Source of the DNA: Bacteroidales bacterium
Lineage (GTDB): Bacteria; Bacteroidota; Bacteroidia; Bacteroidales; UBA932
Assembly (NCBI GenBank): GCA_017962025.1
Contig: JAGCWD010000083.1
Span: 5,725-69,724 of the forward strand
Length of the DNA: 64,000 bases
Direction: 5' to 3'
The notes beneath the pieces were generated by a model that had not been told where the DNA came from, did not search any database, and saw only the letters and a program-made list of their open reading frames with translations. Shown one piece after another: positions 10,918 through 19,605 of this stretch (its first letter is position 1; every line of letters starts with the position of its first letter). The translations under genes were made by a program, and so were the position numbers.

Positions 10918-11868
10918 TTATTTGCGCTCGATCACCCTGCGCGCGGCTTCCGCAATGTTGTCAGCATCTATTCCGTAGGCGGCTAGCAACTCGCCGGGAG
11001 TACCGCTCTGGCCGAAGGTGTCCTTGCCGTTGACATATTCTATCGGCTTGGGAGAAGTGGCCGCGAGAACGCCTGCGACAAGTTCGCCGAGTCCACCGGC
11101 CATGTTGTGCTCCTCCGCTACGACTACCGCTCCGGTCTTGATGGCCGATGCCAGGATAGTGGGGGTGTCAAGGGGCTTGATGGTGGCCACGTCGATGACT
11201 TCCGCGCAGATACCTTCTGTCTCGAGAACTTCGGCAGCCTTCAAGGCTTCCCACACCATGTGTCCGGTAGCTATTATGGATACATCCTTTCCTCCGTTGA
11301 GGACATAGGCCTTTCCAATCTCAAAGGGCTCGTCAGGCATGAAGTCTGCCACTTTCGGCCTTCCGAAGCGGAGATAGACCGGTCCGTTGTACTTTGCCGC
11401 GGCTATTGTGGCATTCTTGGTCTGGGTCCAGTCGCATGGATTGATGACCACCATGTCGGGAAGTGCTCTCATGAGGGCGATGTCTTCCATTGTCTGGTGG
11501 GTCGCACCATCCTCGCCGAGGGTTATTCCGGCATGGGAAGAAGCTATCTTCACGTTGGCCTTGCCGTAGCACACTTCCATCCTGACCTGGTCGTAAACAC
11601 GTCCTGTCACGAATTCGGCAAATGATCCGGCAAACGGAACAAGTCCGGTAATAGCCATTCCGGATGCAACTCCGATCATGTTCGCCTCTGCGATTCCGCA
11701 CTCGAAGTACCTGTCCGGGAATTCTGCCGCGAAGGCATCCATCTTTAGCGAACCTTTTAGGTCGGCAGTGAGGGCTACAACCCTGGGATCAGCCTTTCCT
11801 GCCAGATGAAGACCTTCTCCGAAACCGCTGCGGGTGTCTTTCTTTCCTCTGTCAATGTATTTTTTCAT
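10918..11868 (-). CDS. tktB: Transketolase, C-terminal (pyrimidine-binding) subunit
   Basis: GIAEANM, GEDGATHQ, YLRFGR, TIKPLD, EEH; start at ATG 11868. Confidence 0.93.
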   Translation of the reverse strand: MKKYIDRGKKDTRSGFGEGLHLAGKADPRVVALTADLKGSLKMDAFAAEFPDRYFECGIAEANMIGVASGMAITGLVPFAGSFAEFVTGRVYDQVRMEVCYGKANVKIASSHAGITLGEDGATHQTMEDIALMRALPDMVVINPCDWTQTKNATIAAAKYNGPVYLRFGRPKVADFMPDEPFEIGKAYVLNGGKDVSIIATGHMVWEALKAAEVLETEGICAEVIDVATIKPLDTPTILASAIKTGAVVVAEEHNMAGGLGELVAGVLAATSPKPIEYVNGKDTFGQSGTPGELLAAYGIDADNIAEAARRVIERK

Positions 11869-11881
11869 GATGCTGTCATTT

Positions 11882-12727
11882 TTAGAAATCTCCCAAAGTC
11901 TCTTCAAGCTGTTTCAAAGCGATGGCACACTGGTCCGCATTGGGCACACTTCCGTGCCATTTGTGGGTCCCTGCCATGAAATCGACACCATGGCCCATTT
12001 CAGTGCGGAAAAGGATCATCACCGGCTTGCCTTTGCCTTCCAGCCCCTTTGCGGTGCTGAAAGCCTTTAGGATGGCGTCCATGTCGTGACCGTCAGCGGA
12101 GATGGTCTCCCAGCCGAAGGCCTTCCATTTGGCATCGAGGTCTCCCAGTCCGGCGACCTCTTCAGTGGTACCGTCGATCTGCTGTCCGTTGACATCGGTC
12201 ATGGCGATGAGGTTGTCCACCTTGTGATGGGCGGCGAACATGGCTGCCTCCCAAATCTCTCCTTCTTCGGTTTCTCCGTCACCGCAAAGGCAGAAGACGG
12301 AGTGGTTGTCCTTGGCGGCCTTCTTTCCGAGAGCCATTCCGACTGCGACGGAGAGGCCCTGTCCGAGGGAACCTGCTGCCTGGAAGACACCGGGAAGGCC
12401 CTTCCTTACTGACGGATGTCCCTGAAGGCGGGTACCGAACTTGCGGAAACTGGCCAGCTCGCTGGTCGGGAAATATCCGGCCCTGGAAAGGATTGAATAA
12501 TACATGGGAGTAAGGTGGCCGGCGGAGAGGACGAACATGTCCTGGCCCTTGCCCTCGCGGGTCCAAGTGGCAGGGTCATGGTCCATTACTCCGAAATAGA
12601 GCGCCGTCATGAAGTCGGTGCTGCTCATCGATCCGCCCGGATGTCCGGACTTGGCCTCGACGACCATCCTGATGATGTCTCTTCTGACTTGAGAGGCAAT
12701 CTTCTTCAGATCTTCAGTTGATTGCAT
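11882..12727 (-). CDS. tktA: Transketolase, N-terminal (ThDP-binding) subunit
   Basis: SGHPGGS, FVLSAGH, LQGHP, GSLGQG, GDGE...EG.IWEA, WHG; start at ATG 12727. Confidence 0.93.
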   Translation of the reverse strand: MQSTEDLKKIASQVRRDIIRMVVEAKSGHPGGSMSSTDFMTALYFGVMDHDPATWTREGKGQDMFVLSAGHLTPMYYSILSRAGYFPTSELASFRKFGTRLQGHPSVRKGLPGVFQAAGSLGQGLSVAVGMALGKKAAKDNHSVFCLCGDGETEEGEIWEAAMFAAHHKVDNLIAMTDVNGQQIDGTTEEVAGLGDLDAKWKAFGWETISADGHDMDAILKAFSTAKGLEGKGKPVMILFRTEMGHGVDFMAGTHKWHGSVPNADQCAIALKQLEETLGDF

Positions 12728-12775
12728 TTGCTGTTTGATATTTTGAATTTGAATTATGCTTTTTGTATAAGCATA

Positions 12776-12818
12776 CAAATATAAACCTTTTTTATCTCAA
12801 GAGGAAATTTTAACTTTG
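12776..12818. promoter_or_regulatory. Divergent -7 boxes for transketolase and the E2-E3-E1 operon
   Basis: CAAATATA at 12776-12783 (TATATTTG on minus strand) and TAACTTTG at 12811-12818. Confidence 0.65.
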
Positions 12819-12856: not shown

Positions 12857-14260
12857 ATGGCACAAGTTGTTATAATGCCCAAACAGGGGCAGTCTGTTGA
12901 AAGTTGCATAGTCACTGAATTCAAGAAAAAACCTGGCGACAAAGTCGCAGTCGGAGACATCCTTTTCAGTTATGAAACTGACAAGGCTTCTTTCGATGAG
13001 GAATCAAAGTTCGAGGGCACCGTCCTGGCTTGCTTCTTCAATGACAACGATGAGATTCCGTGCCTGACAAACGTGATGGTTATCGGTGAGCCCGGCGAGT
13101 CTTTCGAGGAGTTCGCTCCGGGGAATTCTGCGTCTGGGGATAATGGTGGTGAGGCGGGGGAGACTATATCCCCTGAAACCACTGCCACCCTCGGCACGTT
13201 AAGAGGGGGGACCGGAATGGAACGAGGTGGAGTGAGCGGTGGGGTCGAGCGAAGCGAGACGGTTTCAGGGGGTATAGTCTCCTCCGTCTTTTCTTCCGCC
13301 GTATCACCACGTGCTAGGCGTCTCGCGGCAGAGAAGGGAGTCGATGCTTCCCATATTGCCGGAAGCGGTCCCGGCGGCCGTGTCATCGAGAGGGATGTGC
13401 TCGCAGCCGCAACCGTCCCGATGTCCGGTCTGGCAAAAGCCATGATGAAGGAAGGCAATCTCCAGGCTCCTGCATTCGGTACCGGCATCGGTGGAATGGT
13501 CAGGGGTTCAGACCTCAAGACATGGAAACCTTCCCACTCGGAGATCCCCGGAGAAGGGACGGATTTCACCGTCGAGAAGATGTCCAACATGCGCAAGCTG
13601 ATTGCCAAGAGCATGTACAATTCCCTCCAGAACTCAGCCCAGCTAACCCACATGCTCGGAGCCGATGCCAGGAAGGTCCAGGCTCTTCGCAAGAAGGCAA
13701 AGAAGGCCCTCGAGGAAGGAAAGATCGATGCTAACGTTACCATCAACGATTTCGTCTGCTTTGCTGTCATAAAGGCCCTCCAGAAGTTTCCAAAGGTCAA
13801 TTCCCACTGCCTCGGTGATTCAATGAGGTTATTCAAGACAGTCAACCTGGGTTGTGCGGTTGATACGGAGCGCGGCCTCATGGTCCCGTGCATCAAGCAC
13901 GCTGAGGAACTTGACATCATAGCTCTCAGCAAAGCCCTCAAGCAGGTGGCCGATGACTGCCGTAAAGGCAGCATCAATCCCGACCTTCTCTCTTCGGAGG
14001 CTGCTTCCTTCACTGTCTCCAACCTCGGCGGTTTCGGGGTTGAGTGGTTCACTCCTGTGATCAACCTGCCTCAGAGCTGTATTCTCGGAGTGGGTACCAT
14101 AGTGCCGCGTCCGAAGGCTCTCGGCGGCGGTGAGTATGAGTTCGTCCCTTACCTCGGCCTGTCGCTCACTTATGACCACAGGGCGCTGGACGGTGGAGAG
14201 GCTACCCGCTTCCTCAAGCAGGTTGCAACTGAGATAGAGAATCTCGAGATTGATTTTTAG
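12857..14260 (+). CDS. Dihydrolipoamide acyltransferase E2 of a 2-oxoacid/acetoin dehydrogenase-like complex
   Basis: Lipoyl domain YETDKA, E3-binding SPRARRLA...GSGPGGRV, catalytic FTVSNLG and DHRALDG; linker contains a repeat element. Confidence 0.95.
   Translation: MAQVVIMPKQGQSVESCIVTEFKKKPGDKVAVGDILFSYETDKASFDEESKFEGTVLACFFNDNDEIPCLTNVMVIGEPGESFEEFAPGNSASGDNGGEAGETISPETTATLGTLRGGTGMERGGVSGGVERSETVSGGIVSSVFSSAVSPRARRLAAEKGVDASHIAGSGPGGRVIERDVLAAATVPMSGLAKAMMKEGNLQAPAFGTGIGGMVRGSDLKTWKPSHSEIPGEGTDFTVEKMSNMRKLIAKSMYNSLQNSAQLTHMLGADARKVQALRKKAKKALEEGKIDANVTINDFVCFAVIKALQKFPKVNSHCLGDSMRLFKTVNLGCAVDTERGLMVPCIKHAEELDIIALSKALKQVADDCRKGSINPDLLSSEAASFTVSNLGGFGVEWFTPVINLPQSCILGVGTIVPRPKALGGGEYEFVPYLGLSLTYDHRALDGGEATRFLKQVATEIENLEIDF
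13151..13290 (+). repeat. Structured palindromic repeat, copy A (in frame within E2)
   Basis: 30-bp terminal stem (13151-13180 / 13261-13290; 26 Watson-Crick plus 4 G-T pairs) around a core shared with 18198-18275. Confidence 0.9.
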
Positions 14261-14284: not shown

Positions 14285-15664
14285 ATGTACGATTTAGCGA
14301 TTATCGGCGGCGGTCCCGGTGGTTATGTGGCCGCAGAAAGGGCCGGAGCAGCCGGCCTCAAGGTCGTTCTTTTCGAAAGGAAGTCGCTCGGCGGAGTCTG
14401 CCTCAATGAAGGCTGCATCCCTACCAAGACCATTCTTTACAGCGCCAAGGTTTACAACTATGCCAAGACCGGCGACCATTATGGTGTCTATGTCAGCGAT
14501 CCCACATTCAAGTATGACGAGATCGTTGCCAGGAAGAACAAGGTTGTGAAGAAACTGGTCGGAGGAGTCCGGGTGGCCATGAAGGGAAACGGAGTCGAAG
14601 TCGTCGCAGAGAATGCCACTATCCAGGGTCGTGATGCCGAAGGAATCAAGGTCGAGGCTGCCGGCAACGTCTATGCTGCAAAGAACCTCCTGATCTGTAC
14701 CGGTTCTGAAGCTGCTGTTCCACCGTTCCCTGGCCTAAAGGAAGCCGGTGACGTCATCGTGACGAACCGCGAAATCCTGGCCATGACCGAAAGGCCAGAA
14801 GAGCTTGTCGTAATCGGTGGCGGAGTTATCGGAATGGAGTTTGCCGCTTTCTTCAGCACCCTTGGAACGAAGGTCACAGTGGTCGAGATGCTTCCCAAGA
14901 TTCTCGGACCCCTCGATGATGAGATCAGCGAGATGCTGCAGAAGCAGTATGAGAAGAGGGGAGTCGAGTTCTGCCTTCGCTGCAAGGTCACCGGAATCGA
15001 GGGCAATACCGTAGTTTATGAGGATCCGGAAGGTAAGGTCTGCCGCGTCAGCGGAGACAAGATCCTTGTGAGCGTGGGCCGCAGGGCCAGCCTCCAGGGC
15101 TTCGGTCTTGAGAACATCGGAGTCGAACTCGCTCTCAATCCCGCCGGACGTCCCTACGGCATCAAGGTCGACGAGAGGATGCGCACCAATGTCCCGGGAG
15201 TCTATGCTGCCGGAGACGTAACCGGTTTTTCAATGCTGGCCCACACCGCTTCACGAGAGGGCGAGGTTGCAGTAAACAATATCCTCGGAAAGGATGACAG
15301 GATGCGTTACAACGCCATCCCCGGTGTTGTCTATACCAATCCTGAGGTCGCAGGAGCCGGGATTACCGAGGCAGAAGCCAAGGCAAAGGGCATCGACTAC
15401 AAGGTCGTCAAGCTCCCTATGGCATATTCAGGTCGTTTTGTGGCCGAGAACGAGAGGGGAGAGGGAATCTGCAAGATCATAGTGGGCGCCGCCCATCATG
15501 AGGTCCTGGGAGTCCACATGCTTGGCAACCCCTGCTCCGAGATCATCCACAGCGCATGCCTGGCAATTGAGACAGAGATGACCCTGGAGCAGCTCCAGGA
15601 AGTCGTTTTCCCTCACCCTACAGTGTCAGAAATCATCAAGGAAACAGCATTTACAATCAAATAA
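14285..15664 (+). CDS. lpdA: Dihydrolipoamide dehydrogenase E3
   Basis: GGGPGGY, GGVCLNEGCIPTK redox disulfide, GGGVIG, HPTVSE. Confidence 0.97.
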   Translation: MYDLAIIGGGPGGYVAAERAGAAGLKVVLFERKSLGGVCLNEGCIPTKTILYSAKVYNYAKTGDHYGVYVSDPTFKYDEIVARKNKVVKKLVGGVRVAMKGNGVEVVAENATIQGRDAEGIKVEAAGNVYAAKNLLICTGSEAAVPPFPGLKEAGDVIVTNREILAMTERPEELVVIGGGVIGMEFAAFFSTLGTKVTVVEMLPKILGPLDDEISEMLQKQYEKRGVEFCLRCKVTGIEGNTVVYEDPEGKVCRVSGDKILVSVGRRASLQGFGLENIGVELALNPAGRPYGIKVDERMRTNVPGVYAAGDVTGFSMLAHTASREGEVAVNNILGKDDRMRYNAIPGVVYTNPEVAGAGITEAEAKAKGIDYKVVKLPMAYSGRFVAENERGEGICKIIVGAAHHEVLGVHMLGNPCSEIIHSACLAIETEMTLEQLQEVVFPHPTVSEIIKETAFTIK

Positions 15665-15677
15665 AAAGGAATTGACC

Positions 15678-18161
15678 ATGCCTAAAGCACTTTACATAGA
15701 TCCAGAAGTCACCCTGCGTCCCCAGGAACACGAACTCAAGCTCCCGGCCATCCCGGTGATGAAGTACAACAAGACCGTCAAGGAAGAGATCGAGAGCGGC
15801 CGTTTCACCAAGGAGGACCTTCTCCGCATTTTCCGTGACATGTCTTACATCCGCGAGTTCGAGACCATGCTCAACCTGGTCAAGACCACAGGAGGTTACA
15901 ATGGCGTTCCTTACAACAACCCCGGCCCTGCCCATCTATCAGCCGGTCAGGAAGCCGCTGCCGTCGGTATGGCCTATGCTCTTGACACTGACGACTTCAT
16001 ATTCGGAAGCCACCGCTCCCACGGCGAGATCCTGGCGAAGGGTCTCCGTTCGATCCAGATCCTTCCCGATGAGGAACTCAAGAAGGTTATGGATGAGTTC
16101 TGGGATGGTGCTACCGTGGCAGTAGCCAAGAAGGCATATTCAGGAACCGACACCAAGGAGTTGGGAATACGTTTCCTCCTCTACGGTGCAATGGCCGAGA
16201 TATTCGCCCGCACTACCGGTTTCAACAAGGGACTCGGTGGTTCGATGCACACCTTCTTCACTCCTTTCGGAATATATCCGAACAATGCGATCGTTGGTGG
16301 AAGCGGTTCCATCGCTGTGGGTGCCGCCCTCTTCAAGAAGGTCAACAGGAAGAAGGGTATCGTCGTAGCCAACCTCGGTGACGGTGCAATGGCCCGCGGT
16401 CCAGTGCTCGAAGGAATGACCTTCGCTTCAATGGACCAGGTCAACACCCTCTGGGAGGGTGACATGAAGGGTGGCCTGCCCGTCCTCTTCAATGTCATGG
16501 ACAACCAGTATGCAATGGGTGGCCAGACCAAGGGAGAGACCATGGGCTATACCTTCCCAGCACGTCTCGGCGCAGGTTTCAAGGCTGATGCCATGGACGC
16601 TGAGAGGGTTGACGGCTACAATCCTCTTGCAGTTATAGATGCCTTCTACCGCAAGAAGGCTTACCTCCTCGAGAAGAAGGGACCGGCCCTCCTGGATGTA
16701 GTGACCTACCGTTACAGCGGCCATTCCCCATCCGACCAGAGCTCCTACCGTACCAAGGAAGAGATCGAGGCCTGGGAGAAAGAAGACTGCATCGTAGCAT
16801 TCGGAAAGAAACTCATCGAGGCCGGAGTGGCCGATCAGGCAGCCCTTGACGCTATCCGCACCGAGGTTAACGCCAATATCTTCGAGTGCTACAAGCTTGC
16901 TATCGACGAGGAAATCTCTCCGAGGATGGATCTTGTGAAGCAGGATGAGCTTCTTGGCGAGATGATGTTCTCCAACCAGAGCATAGATTCCCTTTCTGAC
17001 GCAAAACCCGACGTACTGATGCCTATGGAGGATAATCCCCGAGTAAAACAGATTGCCGGAAAGGAGCGTTTCTGGCTTGGAAAGGACGGCAAGCCTGCCA
17101 GCAGCATGAAGGCATACAACTTCCGCGACGGAGTTTTCGAAGCTATAGTGGATCGCTTCTACAAAGATGCTTCCCTTATCGCCTATGGTGAGGAGAACCG
17201 CGAGTGGGGCGGTGCCTTCGCAGTTTATCGTGGACTGACTGAAGCCCTTCCTTATCACCGTCTGTTCAACTCTCCGATTGCCGAGGCTGCCATCATCGGT
17301 ACCGCTATCGGTTACGCGATGTGCGGTGGCCGTGTCATTCCTGAGATAATGTACTGCGACTTCCTCGGTTGCTGCGGCGACGAGATATTCAACCAGCTTC
17401 CTAAGTGGCAGGCCATGTCCGGCAACATCCTCAAGATGCCTGTGGTCGTGCGCGTTTCCGTCGGTTCCAAGTATGGTGCCCAGCACAGTCAGGACTGGAC
17501 AAGTCTCTGTACACATATTCCCGGACTGAAGGTTTGCTTCCCCGCGACTCCTTACGATGCCAAGGGTTTGATGAACGCTGCATTGCAGGGTACCGACCCT
17601 GTGATCTTCTTCGAGAGCCAGCGTCTCTACGGCATTGCCGAGAAGTTCCACGAAGGCGGAGTTCCGGAAGGCTACTATGAGATTCCTTTCGGAGAACCGG
17701 ACATCAAACGCGCCGGGAAGGATGTCACCATCCTTACAATCGGTGCTACCCTTTACAGGGCTTTTGAGGCTGCTGACATCCTGAAGGAGAAGTACGGAAT
17801 GGAGGCCGAGGTCATAGACGCCCGGTCCCTTGTCCCGTTCAATTACGACAAGGTGATCGAGTCAGTCAAGAAGACGGGCCGTATCATCATCGCTGGAGAT
17901 GCATGCGCCCGCGGATCCTACCTAAACGACCTCGCTGCCAATATCTCGGAGATGGCATTCGACTATCTGGATGCAGCACCCGTAGTCCTCGGTTCCCGCA
18001 ACTGGATCACTCCTTGTCATGAACTTGAGGAGGCCTTCTTCCCTCAGCCGTCCTGGTTCCTCGACGCTATCCACGAGAAGATCGTCCCTCTCAAGGACTA
18101 TGTTCCCACAAGCAACCAGACCATCGCCCAGATGCGTCTGCATGCCCGTAAAGGTATTTAA
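15678..18161 (+). CDS. Fused E1 alpha/beta ThDP-dependent dehydrogenase (AcoAB/PdhAB-like)
   Basis: Alpha: HLSAGQEA, HRSHG, GGSMH, GDGA...DNQY, YRYSGHS; beta: NSPIAE, EIMYCDF, GAQHSQ, IDARSL. Confidence 0.92.
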   Translation: MPKALYIDPEVTLRPQEHELKLPAIPVMKYNKTVKEEIESGRFTKEDLLRIFRDMSYIREFETMLNLVKTTGGYNGVPYNNPGPAHLSAGQEAAAVGMAYALDTDDFIFGSHRSHGEILAKGLRSIQILPDEELKKVMDEFWDGATVAVAKKAYSGTDTKELGIRFLLYGAMAEIFARTTGFNKGLGGSMHTFFTPFGIYPNNAIVGGSGSIAVGAALFKKVNRKKGIVVANLGDGAMARGPVLEGMTFASMDQVNTLWEGDMKGGLPVLFNVMDNQYAMGGQTKGETMGYTFPARLGAGFKADAMDAERVDGYNPLAVIDAFYRKKAYLLEKKGPALLDVVTYRYSGHSPSDQSSYRTKEEIEAWEKEDCIVAFGKKLIEAGVADQAALDAIRTEVNANIFECYKLAIDEEISPRMDLVKQDELLGEMMFSNQSIDSLSDAKPDVLMPMEDNPRVKQIAGKERFWLGKDGKPASSMKAYNFRDGVFEAIVDRFYKDASLIAYGEENREWGGAFAVYRGLTEALPYHRLFNSPIAEAAIIGTAIGYAMCGGRVIPEIMYCDFLGCCGDEIFNQLPKWQAMSGNILKMPVVVRVSVGSKYGAQHSQDWTSLCTHIPGLKVCFPATPYDAKGLMNAALQGTDPVIFFESQRLYGIAEKFHEGGVPEGYYEIPFGEPDIKRAGKDVTILTIGATLYRAFEAADILKEKYGMEAEVIDARSLVPFNYDKVIESVKKTGRIIIAGDACARGSYLNDLAANISEMAFDYLDAAPVVLGSRNWITPCHELEEAFFPQPSWFLDAIHEKIVPLKDYVPTSNQTIAQMRLHARKGI

Positions 18162-18176
18162 TCCTTCATGATGATG

Positions 18177-18296
18177 GACAGCCCCTTTCCATTTCCGAAC
18201 CGTCTCGCTGCGCTCGACCCCACCGTTCGCTGCGCTCCGGTCCCCCCTCTTAACGTGCCGAGGGTGGCAGTGGTTCTGAAACGGAAAGGGGCTGTC
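18177..18296 (-). repeat. Structured palindromic repeat, copy B (intergenic)
   Basis: 25-bp terminal stem (18177-18201 / 18272-18296, 2 mismatches); core is the reverse complement of the copy A core. Confidence 0.9.
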
Positions 18297-18327
18297 ATCG
18301 AAGAAATTGAAACAAAATAATCAGAAT

Positions 18328-19605
18328 ATGAAGACAAAAGCGGTACGCCTTTACGGCAAGGAAGACCTGAGGCTTGAGGAGTTCGAACTTCCTGAGATGA
18401 AGGAAGACGAAATTCTGGCCAAGGTAGTAAGCGACAGCATCTGCATGTCGTCCTATAAATCCTCCCATCAGGGAACGGACCACAAAAGGGTCCCCAATGA
18501 CATCGCAGAGAATCCTACGATCATCGGTCACGAATTCGCAGGAGTCATTGAGAAAGTCGGTTCGAAATGGAAGGACCAGTTCAAGCCCGGAGACAAGTTC
18601 TCCATTCAGCCTGCCATCAACTTTCCCGGAGGACCGGTCGGTGTGCTTTCTTCTCCCGGTTATTCCTACAAATACTCCGGAGGAGATGCGACTTATATCA
18701 TTATTCCTGCCGAGGTTATGGAGCAAGGCTGCCTTTTGCCTTACAACGGCCCTGGATTCTATCCTGCTTCATTGAGCGAACCCCTATCCTGTGTAATCGG
18801 TGCGATGCACGCATGCTACCACACCACCCCAGGATCCTATGTACATCAGATGGAGATTAAAGACGGAGGAAAGATGGCGCTGCTCGCAGGTGTCGGACCC
18901 ATGGGTCTTGCCATGATCAACTATGTCCTTCATCGTGAAGACCGTCGCCCTTCGCTCTTTGTGGTAACCGACATTGATCAGGCCCGCCTTGACAGGGCTG
19001 CGTCCCTTTACACCAAGGAATATGCTGCATCAAGGGGAGTCGATCTCCGCTATGTCAACACCGGTTCTGTCGAGAATCCTGCTGCATTCCTGCGTGAGAT
19101 CTCCGGGGGAACCGGCTACGACGAGGTTGTGGTCATGGCCCCTGTTCCCTCTGTCGTTGAACAGGGAGACGATATCCTCGGACAGGACGGTTGCCTCAAC
19201 TTCTTCTCCGGTCCGAGCAAGGCTGATTTCAAGGCACCGCTAAATTTCTACAATGTCCATTATGCTGCTACCCACATAGTTGGCACCAGCGGCGGAAATA
19301 CCGAGGACATGAAAGAAGCCCTCGACCTCATGGGTAAAGGAATGGATCCTGCCGGTCTTGTGACTCACATCGGTGGACTCAACGTTGTTCCTGAGACCAC
19401 TCTTCATCTCCCGGAAATCAAGGGAGGTAAGAAACTGATCTACACACATGTGGAGATGCCTCTGACTGCTATTACAGAGTTTGAGGAGAAGGGAAAGACC
19501 AACCCGGTCTATGCCGAACTCGACCGTCTCTGCAAGGCCAACAACGGTCTCTGGAACGTTGAAGCAGAAGAATATCTTCTCAGCCACGCCGACCAGCTGG
19601 CATAG
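18328..19605 (+). CDS. Zn-dependent MDR dehydrogenase, L-sorbose-1-phosphate reductase (SorE/YggP)-like
   Basis: MKTKAVRLYGKEDLRLEEFELP, SICMSS, GHEF, LSEPLSC, GVGPMG, VTDID; no structural-Zn Cys4 loop. Confidence 0.85.
   Translation: MKTKAVRLYGKEDLRLEEFELPEMKEDEILAKVVSDSICMSSYKSSHQGTDHKRVPNDIAENPTIIGHEFAGVIEKVGSKWKDQFKPGDKFSIQPAINFPGGPVGVLSSPGYSYKYSGGDATYIIIPAEVMEQGCLLPYNGPGFYPASLSEPLSCVIGAMHACYHTTPGSYVHQMEIKDGGKMALLAGVGPMGLAMINYVLHREDRRPSLFVVTDIDQARLDRAASLYTKEYAASRGVDLRYVNTGSVENPAAFLREISGGTGYDEVVVMAPVPSVVEQGDDILGQDGCLNFFSGPSKADFKAPLNFYNVHYAATHIVGTSGGNTEDMKEALDLMGKGMDPAGLVTHIGGLNVVPETTLHLPEIKGGKKLIYTHVEMPLTAITEFEEKGKTNPVYAELDRLCKANNGLWNVEAEEYLLSHADQLA

Follow-up and report, generated by a model that had tools for sequence, protein, structure and literature searches.

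How does the swinging-arm linker of a central enzyme come to consist mostly of a palindromic DNA repeat? The question is raised by a gene for dihydrolipoamide acyltransferase (E2) in the window, the whole stretch of 64,000 nucleotides of Bacteroidales DNA that was analysed. The gene occupies 12857..14260 on the plus strand, forms an intact open reading frame of 467 amino acids and heads an E2-E3-E1 cluster. Pfam recognizes the three domains of an E2 in the expected order, all above the curated cut-offs. These are the lipoyl domain (aa 4-67, 12866..13057, plus strand; Biotin_lipoyl PF00364, E = 2.2e-9), the E3-binding or peripheral subunit-binding domain (aa 149-182, 13301..13402, plus strand; PF02817, E = 7e-16) and the catalytic acyltransferase domain, 2-oxoacid_dh (aa 236-464, 13562..14248, plus strand; PF00198, E = 3.2e-66). 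The translation contains both the lipoyl-lysine motif ETDKA and the catalytic DHRALDGG (His/Asp) motif. A dihydrolipoyl dehydrogenase-like reading frame follows at 14285-15664, and a fused E1 reading frame of 829 amino acids lies after it at 15672-18161. Upstream of the cluster, divergent and on the minus strand, are split transketolase genes, with the N- and C-terminal halves as separate reading frames (window 10918-12778). The first interdomain linker of E2, between the lipoyl and the E3-binding domain, is filled at aa 99-145 by the element studied here. The initial annotation had read the stretch between the lipoyl domain and the SPRARRLA motif as the translation of a repeat, with no stop codon and no frameshift, and translation of the open reading frame bears this out. 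An AlphaFold2 model of E2 from a 20-sequence alignment reached a mean pLDDT of 47.6, which is too poor to judge disorder of the linker.

The repeat in E2, copy A, is 140 nt long (13151..13290, plus strand) and lies forward and in frame. Structurally, it is a long stem enclosing three smaller hairpins. The outer stem of about 30 bp spans 13151 to 13290, with a copy-specific left arm at 13151..13180 and a right arm at 13261..13290 (alignment columns 4-33 pairing with columns 114-143). Within it, all on the plus strand, lie core hairpin 1 (13185..13209), which has seven invariant pairs and a TTAA in its loop that closes two of the six reading frames, and core hairpin 2 (13211..13240), a length-variable module with 26 nt between a 4-bp base. 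Core hairpin 3 (13244..13260) is a mini-hairpin of the GCGAAGC type and is invariant in 14 E2 orthologues. Folded as RNA, positions 13130-13310 reach -97.2 kcal/mol, whereas shuffled versions average -67.2 (z = -6.3) and none of 200 matches the observed fold. An assembly artefact is ruled out, as independent metagenome-assembled genomes (MAGs) and about 50 strain-level protein variants share the in-frame E2 insert.

We consider it highly probable that most of the E2 linker derives from reading through a palindromic repeat, comparable to the Rickettsia palindromic elements (RPEs), that was fixed in the ancestor of one clade. A dispersed repeat would have become fixed in the DNA of the swinging-arm linker in the ancestor of a rumen-type Bacteroidales clade, probably Ca. 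Cryptobacteroides. Such a repeat, keeping the frame and free of stop codons, would be read through, giving a Gly/Ser/Thr/Glu/Arg-rich peptide or, in alleles with the palindrome reversed, a Pro/Ser/Val-rich one. The repeat peptide would now make up 46-49 of the approximately 60 linker residues, with most of the native Ala/Pro linker gone. The same process would operate at permissive loops and interdomain linkers of many housekeeping genes, E2 being one instance. Judging from the conserved open frames only, translation would proceed through the -97 kcal/mol stem, and the peptide is presumably tolerated as a flexible tether. On the common view, only length and flexibility matter in an E2 linker.

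Copy A is one member of a family. The search of the genome (2.27 Mb in 132 contigs, 81% complete) found about 25 copies, several of them at contig ends, which indicates that the repeat breaks the assembly. For annotation, such inserts inflate protein families through a common low-complexity peptide, in addition to breaking short-read assemblies. Copy B is intergenic and in the opposite orientation (~18173-18299, minus strand), about 12 nt past the stop codon of E1 (18161). Copies A and B have in common a core of about 80-90 nt, with a shorter hairpin 2 in copy B, and their outer stems are wholly different, each being self-complementary. Copy B has no T-run past its stem, and so does not resemble a classical intrinsic terminator. 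It sits before a reading frame like that of a zinc-type alcohol dehydrogenase, starting near 18329. Nine intergenic copies lie 17-80 nt past the ends of reading frames, several of them about 30 nt past, which is roughly one arm. The family unit is about 140-150 nt: a long outer stem, specific to each copy, encloses a conserved core of three hairpins. Among the matches listed, more than 115 stretches of Bacteroidales MAGs from rumen, omasum and faeces contain an exact 23-mer of the core. Of 401 species sampled from the genus, 68 have the core, and a core search of 16 genomes belonging to other families of the order did not find it.

Eight copies in the genome lie inside long reading frames. Seven of the hosts have Pfam domains flanking or around the insert, and the eighth is a reading frame of 391 amino acids with no Pfam match. 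Besides E2, at least seven hosts carry the element in frame, namely MiaA, PurH, QueH, a GH3 enzyme, two methyltransferases and one unknown protein. The position of the insert within the host is specific in each case: directly after the P-loop helix in MiaA, between the N- and C-terminal domains in the GH3 glycosidase, and between the domains of the SpoU methylase. In QueH it splits the domain into two stretches, and in the TrmB-like methylase it lies in reverse orientation. In other MAGs, 29 of 81 copies are inside reading frames of at least 200 amino acids. Ten of these hosts were checked and all are real genes, namely KsgA, IspH, RsmF, Fmt, MatE, aldehyde dehydrogenase (two MAGs) and GH3 (three MAGs). 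One GH3 reading frame (L117:1-2067) contains two reverse-orientation copies about 300 amino acids apart. The initial annotation proposed looking in unrelated proteins for the linker peptide and for the other five reading frames of the core. The linker peptide and that of the reverse-complement frame are indeed carried by unrelated real proteins (MiaA, PurH, QueH, GH3, SpoU methylase, KsgA and IspH), with RsmF, Fmt, aldehyde dehydrogenase and MatE as further hosts of either one.

The frames in which these copies are read are far from random. Seventeen of the 29 copies use the frame containing TLGTLRGG, ten use the reverse-strand frame containing PPLNVPRVA, and two use another reverse frame. In each orientation a single frame accounts for nearly all in-gene copies. 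The four frames that the TTAA of hairpin 1 leaves available are open across the element in 35-62% of copies, and the Cys/His-rich forward frame is used 0 times, versus 17 for the Gly/Thr-rich frame. The lengths of 107 copies are evenly spread modulo 3 (38/35/34). The element itself therefore does not impose the frame, and in-gene copies keep it through filtering. The simplest cause of this filtering would be selection on the host protein.

Filled and empty sites can be compared directly at MiaA. The insert is 147-150 nt in the source genome (G000), and six relatives are empty, the site there measuring 72-78 nt. The 51 extra residues of MiaA map to a one-residue turn in the solved MiaA structure 3d3q. 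In another relative (G044), the element at MiaA is reversed with the frame kept. The closest relative (G041; miaA at L266) retains a remnant of 36 nt equal to one arm, a footprint of 12 amino acids, which fits deletion of the core across short direct repeats present in each arm. Where the source genome has the element in QueH and PurH, some relatives carry different inserts, partly palindromic or decayed. One genome (G014) carries other inserts, unrelated or decayed, at the element's own sites in both queH (L070) and miaA (L067). Its QueH insert region is about 240 nt and folds at -119 kcal/mol. Inserts of this sort at these very sites suggest either permissive hot spots or additional repeat families.

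The history of the E2 linker itself was followed in 69 full-length orthologues from species representatives. No trace of the element is seen in 50 of these, and their linkers are Ala-rich (35% Ala) with a median of 45.5 amino acids. The carriers fall mainly in one clade of 18 sequences (SH-aLRT 98) in a tree that comes from a quick search only and is poorly resolved. Seventeen members carry the element, and the remaining one (L194) is the sole member with a plain Ala/Pro linker. Seven of the 17 carriers, the source genome included, have the element forward, six have it reverse-complemented in frame, and four have a hybrid sharing only hairpin 3. Two further carriers lie outside the clade, one forward (L200) and one hybrid (L230). 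With these two exceptions, E2s of the same genus outside the clade have Ala/Pro/Glu-rich linkers devoid of the peptide, an outcome in favour of the initial annotation. The carrier linkers have a median of 59-60 amino acids, of which the element supplies 46-49. The earlier wording, that the element replaced or expanded the linker, can now be narrowed: the native linker is largely lost, so replacement describes most of the change, and the expansion is slight (about 14 amino acids). The linkers of the nearest non-carriers cannot be aligned, so the insertion boundaries are not derivable at base level. An Ala/Pro arm swapped for two differing repeat-encoded peptides in at least 17 species represents a natural experiment on how much change a swinging arm tolerates.

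Further diversity is seen within the carriers. In the protein collection, fifteen E2 clusters at 90% identity contain the forward peptide, with the core-encoded residues invariant and the arm-encoded residues variable. One E2 variant (P0025) combines a left arm typical of one E2 cluster with the hairpin-2 peptide of another, and this mosaic indicates recombination between alleles within the element. The hybrid elements of four linkers (L191, L196, L197 and L202) have a longer, different left half, which forms hairpins of its own and leads into the same hairpin 3. Linkers with this hybrid element are 71-85 amino acids long. From the hybrids, the element family seems to be modular.

The outer stem covaries. 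Fourteen orthologous E2 copies were oriented by their core and then aligned, and the DNA symmetry is preserved in all fourteen, with 93% of outer-stem cells paired, which again favours the initial annotation. Compensatory double changes are present in 20 of the 28 outer-stem pairs. Across these pairs 95.6% of cells are paired. Shuffles give 83.5%, with none of the 500 attaining the observed figure, and sliding the partners lowers it to about 46%. Variation in the three inner hairpins is minimal, with 14 of 16 pairs invariant, and one-sided changes of the G-U type are rare in the E2 copies. Whichever strand the mRNA corresponds to, the core strand or its complement, the Watson-Crick pairs retained are the same, and thus the constraint looks as though it acts on DNA. 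The complementarity of the stem would then be kept by a DNA-level process, either arm-to-arm correction, such as template switching at quasi-palindromes, or selection on a hairpin or cruciform. It had also been proposed that the mRNA stem slows translation between the domains; this role is not favoured, as covariation restricted to Watson-Crick pairs in both orientations would speak otherwise.

The core behaves differently from the arms. Its two conserved blocks are 94% identical on average (minimum 87.5%), compared with 44% at fourfold-degenerate sites of the catalytic domain of the same genes, a value that represents saturation. Neutral decay of a dead insert therefore cannot explain the core. 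Taken from these identities, conservation of this order would need either selection in situ or repeated renewal by conversion or re-insertion. A neutral selfish insert would not be expected to hold a core at 94% identity over such saturated divergence, which points to some further constraint.

The most serious alternative to a fixed, read-through repeat holds that the element is a recoding intragenic inverton, a palindrome that flips by recombination between its arms and offers two alternative linker or loop peptides per gene, with the core carrying signals for flipping or serving some other role at the DNA level. Such invertons have been documented in Bacteroides (PMC10028968), and like them the element is a segment flanked by inverted repeats within a Bacteroidales gene, with an open frame both ways. 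In E2, MiaA and the aldehyde dehydrogenase gene, one and the same site is occupied by the element in either orientation, always in frame. Close relatives differ in orientation, as in L188/L264 and L258/L195, with fourfold-site identities of 0.88 and 0.90. In the reversed alleles the arms and an asymmetric bulge travel with the core, so that the whole palindrome is reversed between unchanged flanks, and the core is conserved beyond the neutral level. However, the Bacteroides invertons are single-locus switches, found in mixed orientations in one culture and attributed to invertases, whereas the element is a multi-copy repeat family whose orientation differs, as far as seen, only between species, and no invertase is linked to it. 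The roughly 50 E2 variants at strain level, which come from independent assemblies and form four 90%-identity clusters, are all forward, although this is a weak test, since a flip changes about 10% of residues and a flipped variant might fall outside its cluster. Linker alleles are incongruent with the poorly resolved E2 tree, and recombination of old alleles or re-insertion explains this equally well. On this balance, we regard the inverton as an unlikely, though not a negligible, explanation. Similarly tentative is the related proposal that the three-hairpin core is under nucleotide-level selection at each locus and that the palindrome reverses in place. If this were true, the elements would be movable, invertible coding cassettes, or a DNA-level module that rewrites loops and linkers of essential enzymes throughout a large genus of rumen Bacteroidales.

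According to a second alternative, RNA excision, translational bypassing or protein splicing takes the element out before translation or in its course, and the linker peptide is never made. In its favour, the stem has extreme stability, and double-strand RNases act on substrates of this kind, a perfect duplex of about 30 bp. Removal would, however, free the insert from any demand on frame, length or stop codons, yet the in-gene copies are all open, reversed ones included, and of the four open frames only two serve nearly all of these copies. The insert contains no intein or other Pfam domain. Rfam returned nothing credible, either at the gathering threshold for the whole window or at E up to 10 for the element, and ARAGORN called no tRNA-like gene. 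Removal is therefore very improbable. The idea that the peptide is an ancestral, selected E2 linker motif with incidental DNA symmetry draws on its invariant core in the 15 E2 clusters and can practically be dismissed, as the same nucleotides are also present between genes and within unrelated genes, are equally conserved when reverse-complemented to encode a different peptide, and are missing from 50 of the 69 E2 orthologues.

The reading of the linker as a fixed, translated repeat has its closest precedent in the RPEs, in-frame palindromic repeats in genes (Ogata et al. 2000, 2002; Claverie and Ogata 2003, as summarized in PMC10969869 and PMC3733652). Like the element, RPEs are palindromic repeats of about 100-150 bp dispersed between genes and, in frame, within numerous unrelated housekeeping genes. 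Each contributes a conserved peptide where the fold permits it, and no transposase is known for either. The two differ in several respects. The hosts here are Bacteroidota, free-living anaerobes of gut and rumen, and the element has an asymmetric, conserved three-hairpin core within a long, copy-specific, covarying stem. It occupies the same site in both orientations, each of them readable, and in E2 it replaces a functional swinging-arm linker. The RPE-like source of new peptide that was initially proposed for Bacteroidales thus holds as a description of behaviour, that is, of in-frame copies in many genes. By analogy, the element may be said to work like an RPE, a likeness that implies neither sequence relation nor membership. 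Rickettsia-style coding palindromes would then also be at work extensively in free-living Bacteroidales of gut and rumen, and in a mechanically important part of a central enzyme. A literature search with incomplete journal coverage found no published account of the family or its kin in rumen Bacteroidales or Bacteroidota.

Smaller palindromic repeats have likewise been found in frame. GTAG/CGTC-tagged REPs occur in several phyla, some of them in frame inside reading frames (Di Nocera et al. 2013, PMC3733652), and in-frame palindromic repeats are also documented in Bordetella, where they are the betaproteobacterial repeat element BRE (Hot et al. 2011, cited in PMC3184786). Like the present family, these are mostly downstream of genes, and some lie in reading frames where they code for 20-30 extra residues. 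They are, however, single stem-loops or dimers of 20-40 bp with a terminal tetranucleotide tag, in contrast to about 140 nt with three inner hairpins. The element is not a tagged REP: its size is outside the range, and CGTC adjoins hairpin 3 in only 25 of 107 copies. Bacterial MITEs are also short, non-coding and multi-copy with inverted-repeat ends. MITE membership is rejected as well, as the arms of the element are copy-specific rather than common to all copies, there is no parent insertion sequence, and the search for target-site duplications and for terminal repeats common to copies found none, with direct-flank identity at chance level.

The origin of the arms can be constrained further. 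The empty MiaA sites have neither arm, and the arms follow a loose family-wide consensus. The possibility that the arms are pre-existing host hairpins invaded by the core is therefore rejected at coding sites. Were the arms an inverted copy of the host flanks, at most their outermost 5-7 nt could have that origin. A conserved core, compensating copy-specific stems and no known transposase together make the family a tractable system for the spread and persistence of intragenic repeats. We call the element mobile from its presence or absence and its copy number only, and no linked transposase was found. The candidate considered was a Y1/RAYT transposase, as associated with REPs. Two weak Y1_Tnp-like reading frames of about 293 amino acids with an HxH motif are present in the source genome (G000:C10:19930-20808, that is L270:907-1788, minus strand; and G000:C73:14490-15365). 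Homologues turned up in 14 of the 24 species sampled within the genus and in none of 16 other families; in the source genome and in G045 they lie in synteny close to miaA. Neither reading frame is flanked by the element, and their presence is uncorrelated with it: such genes occur in element-free genomes, and were not found in one genome that has the element. The Y1/RAYT transposase was therefore rejected as the mobiliser. A separate palindrome of 52 nt adjoins the first of the two Y1_Tnp-like reading frames (L270:771-876).
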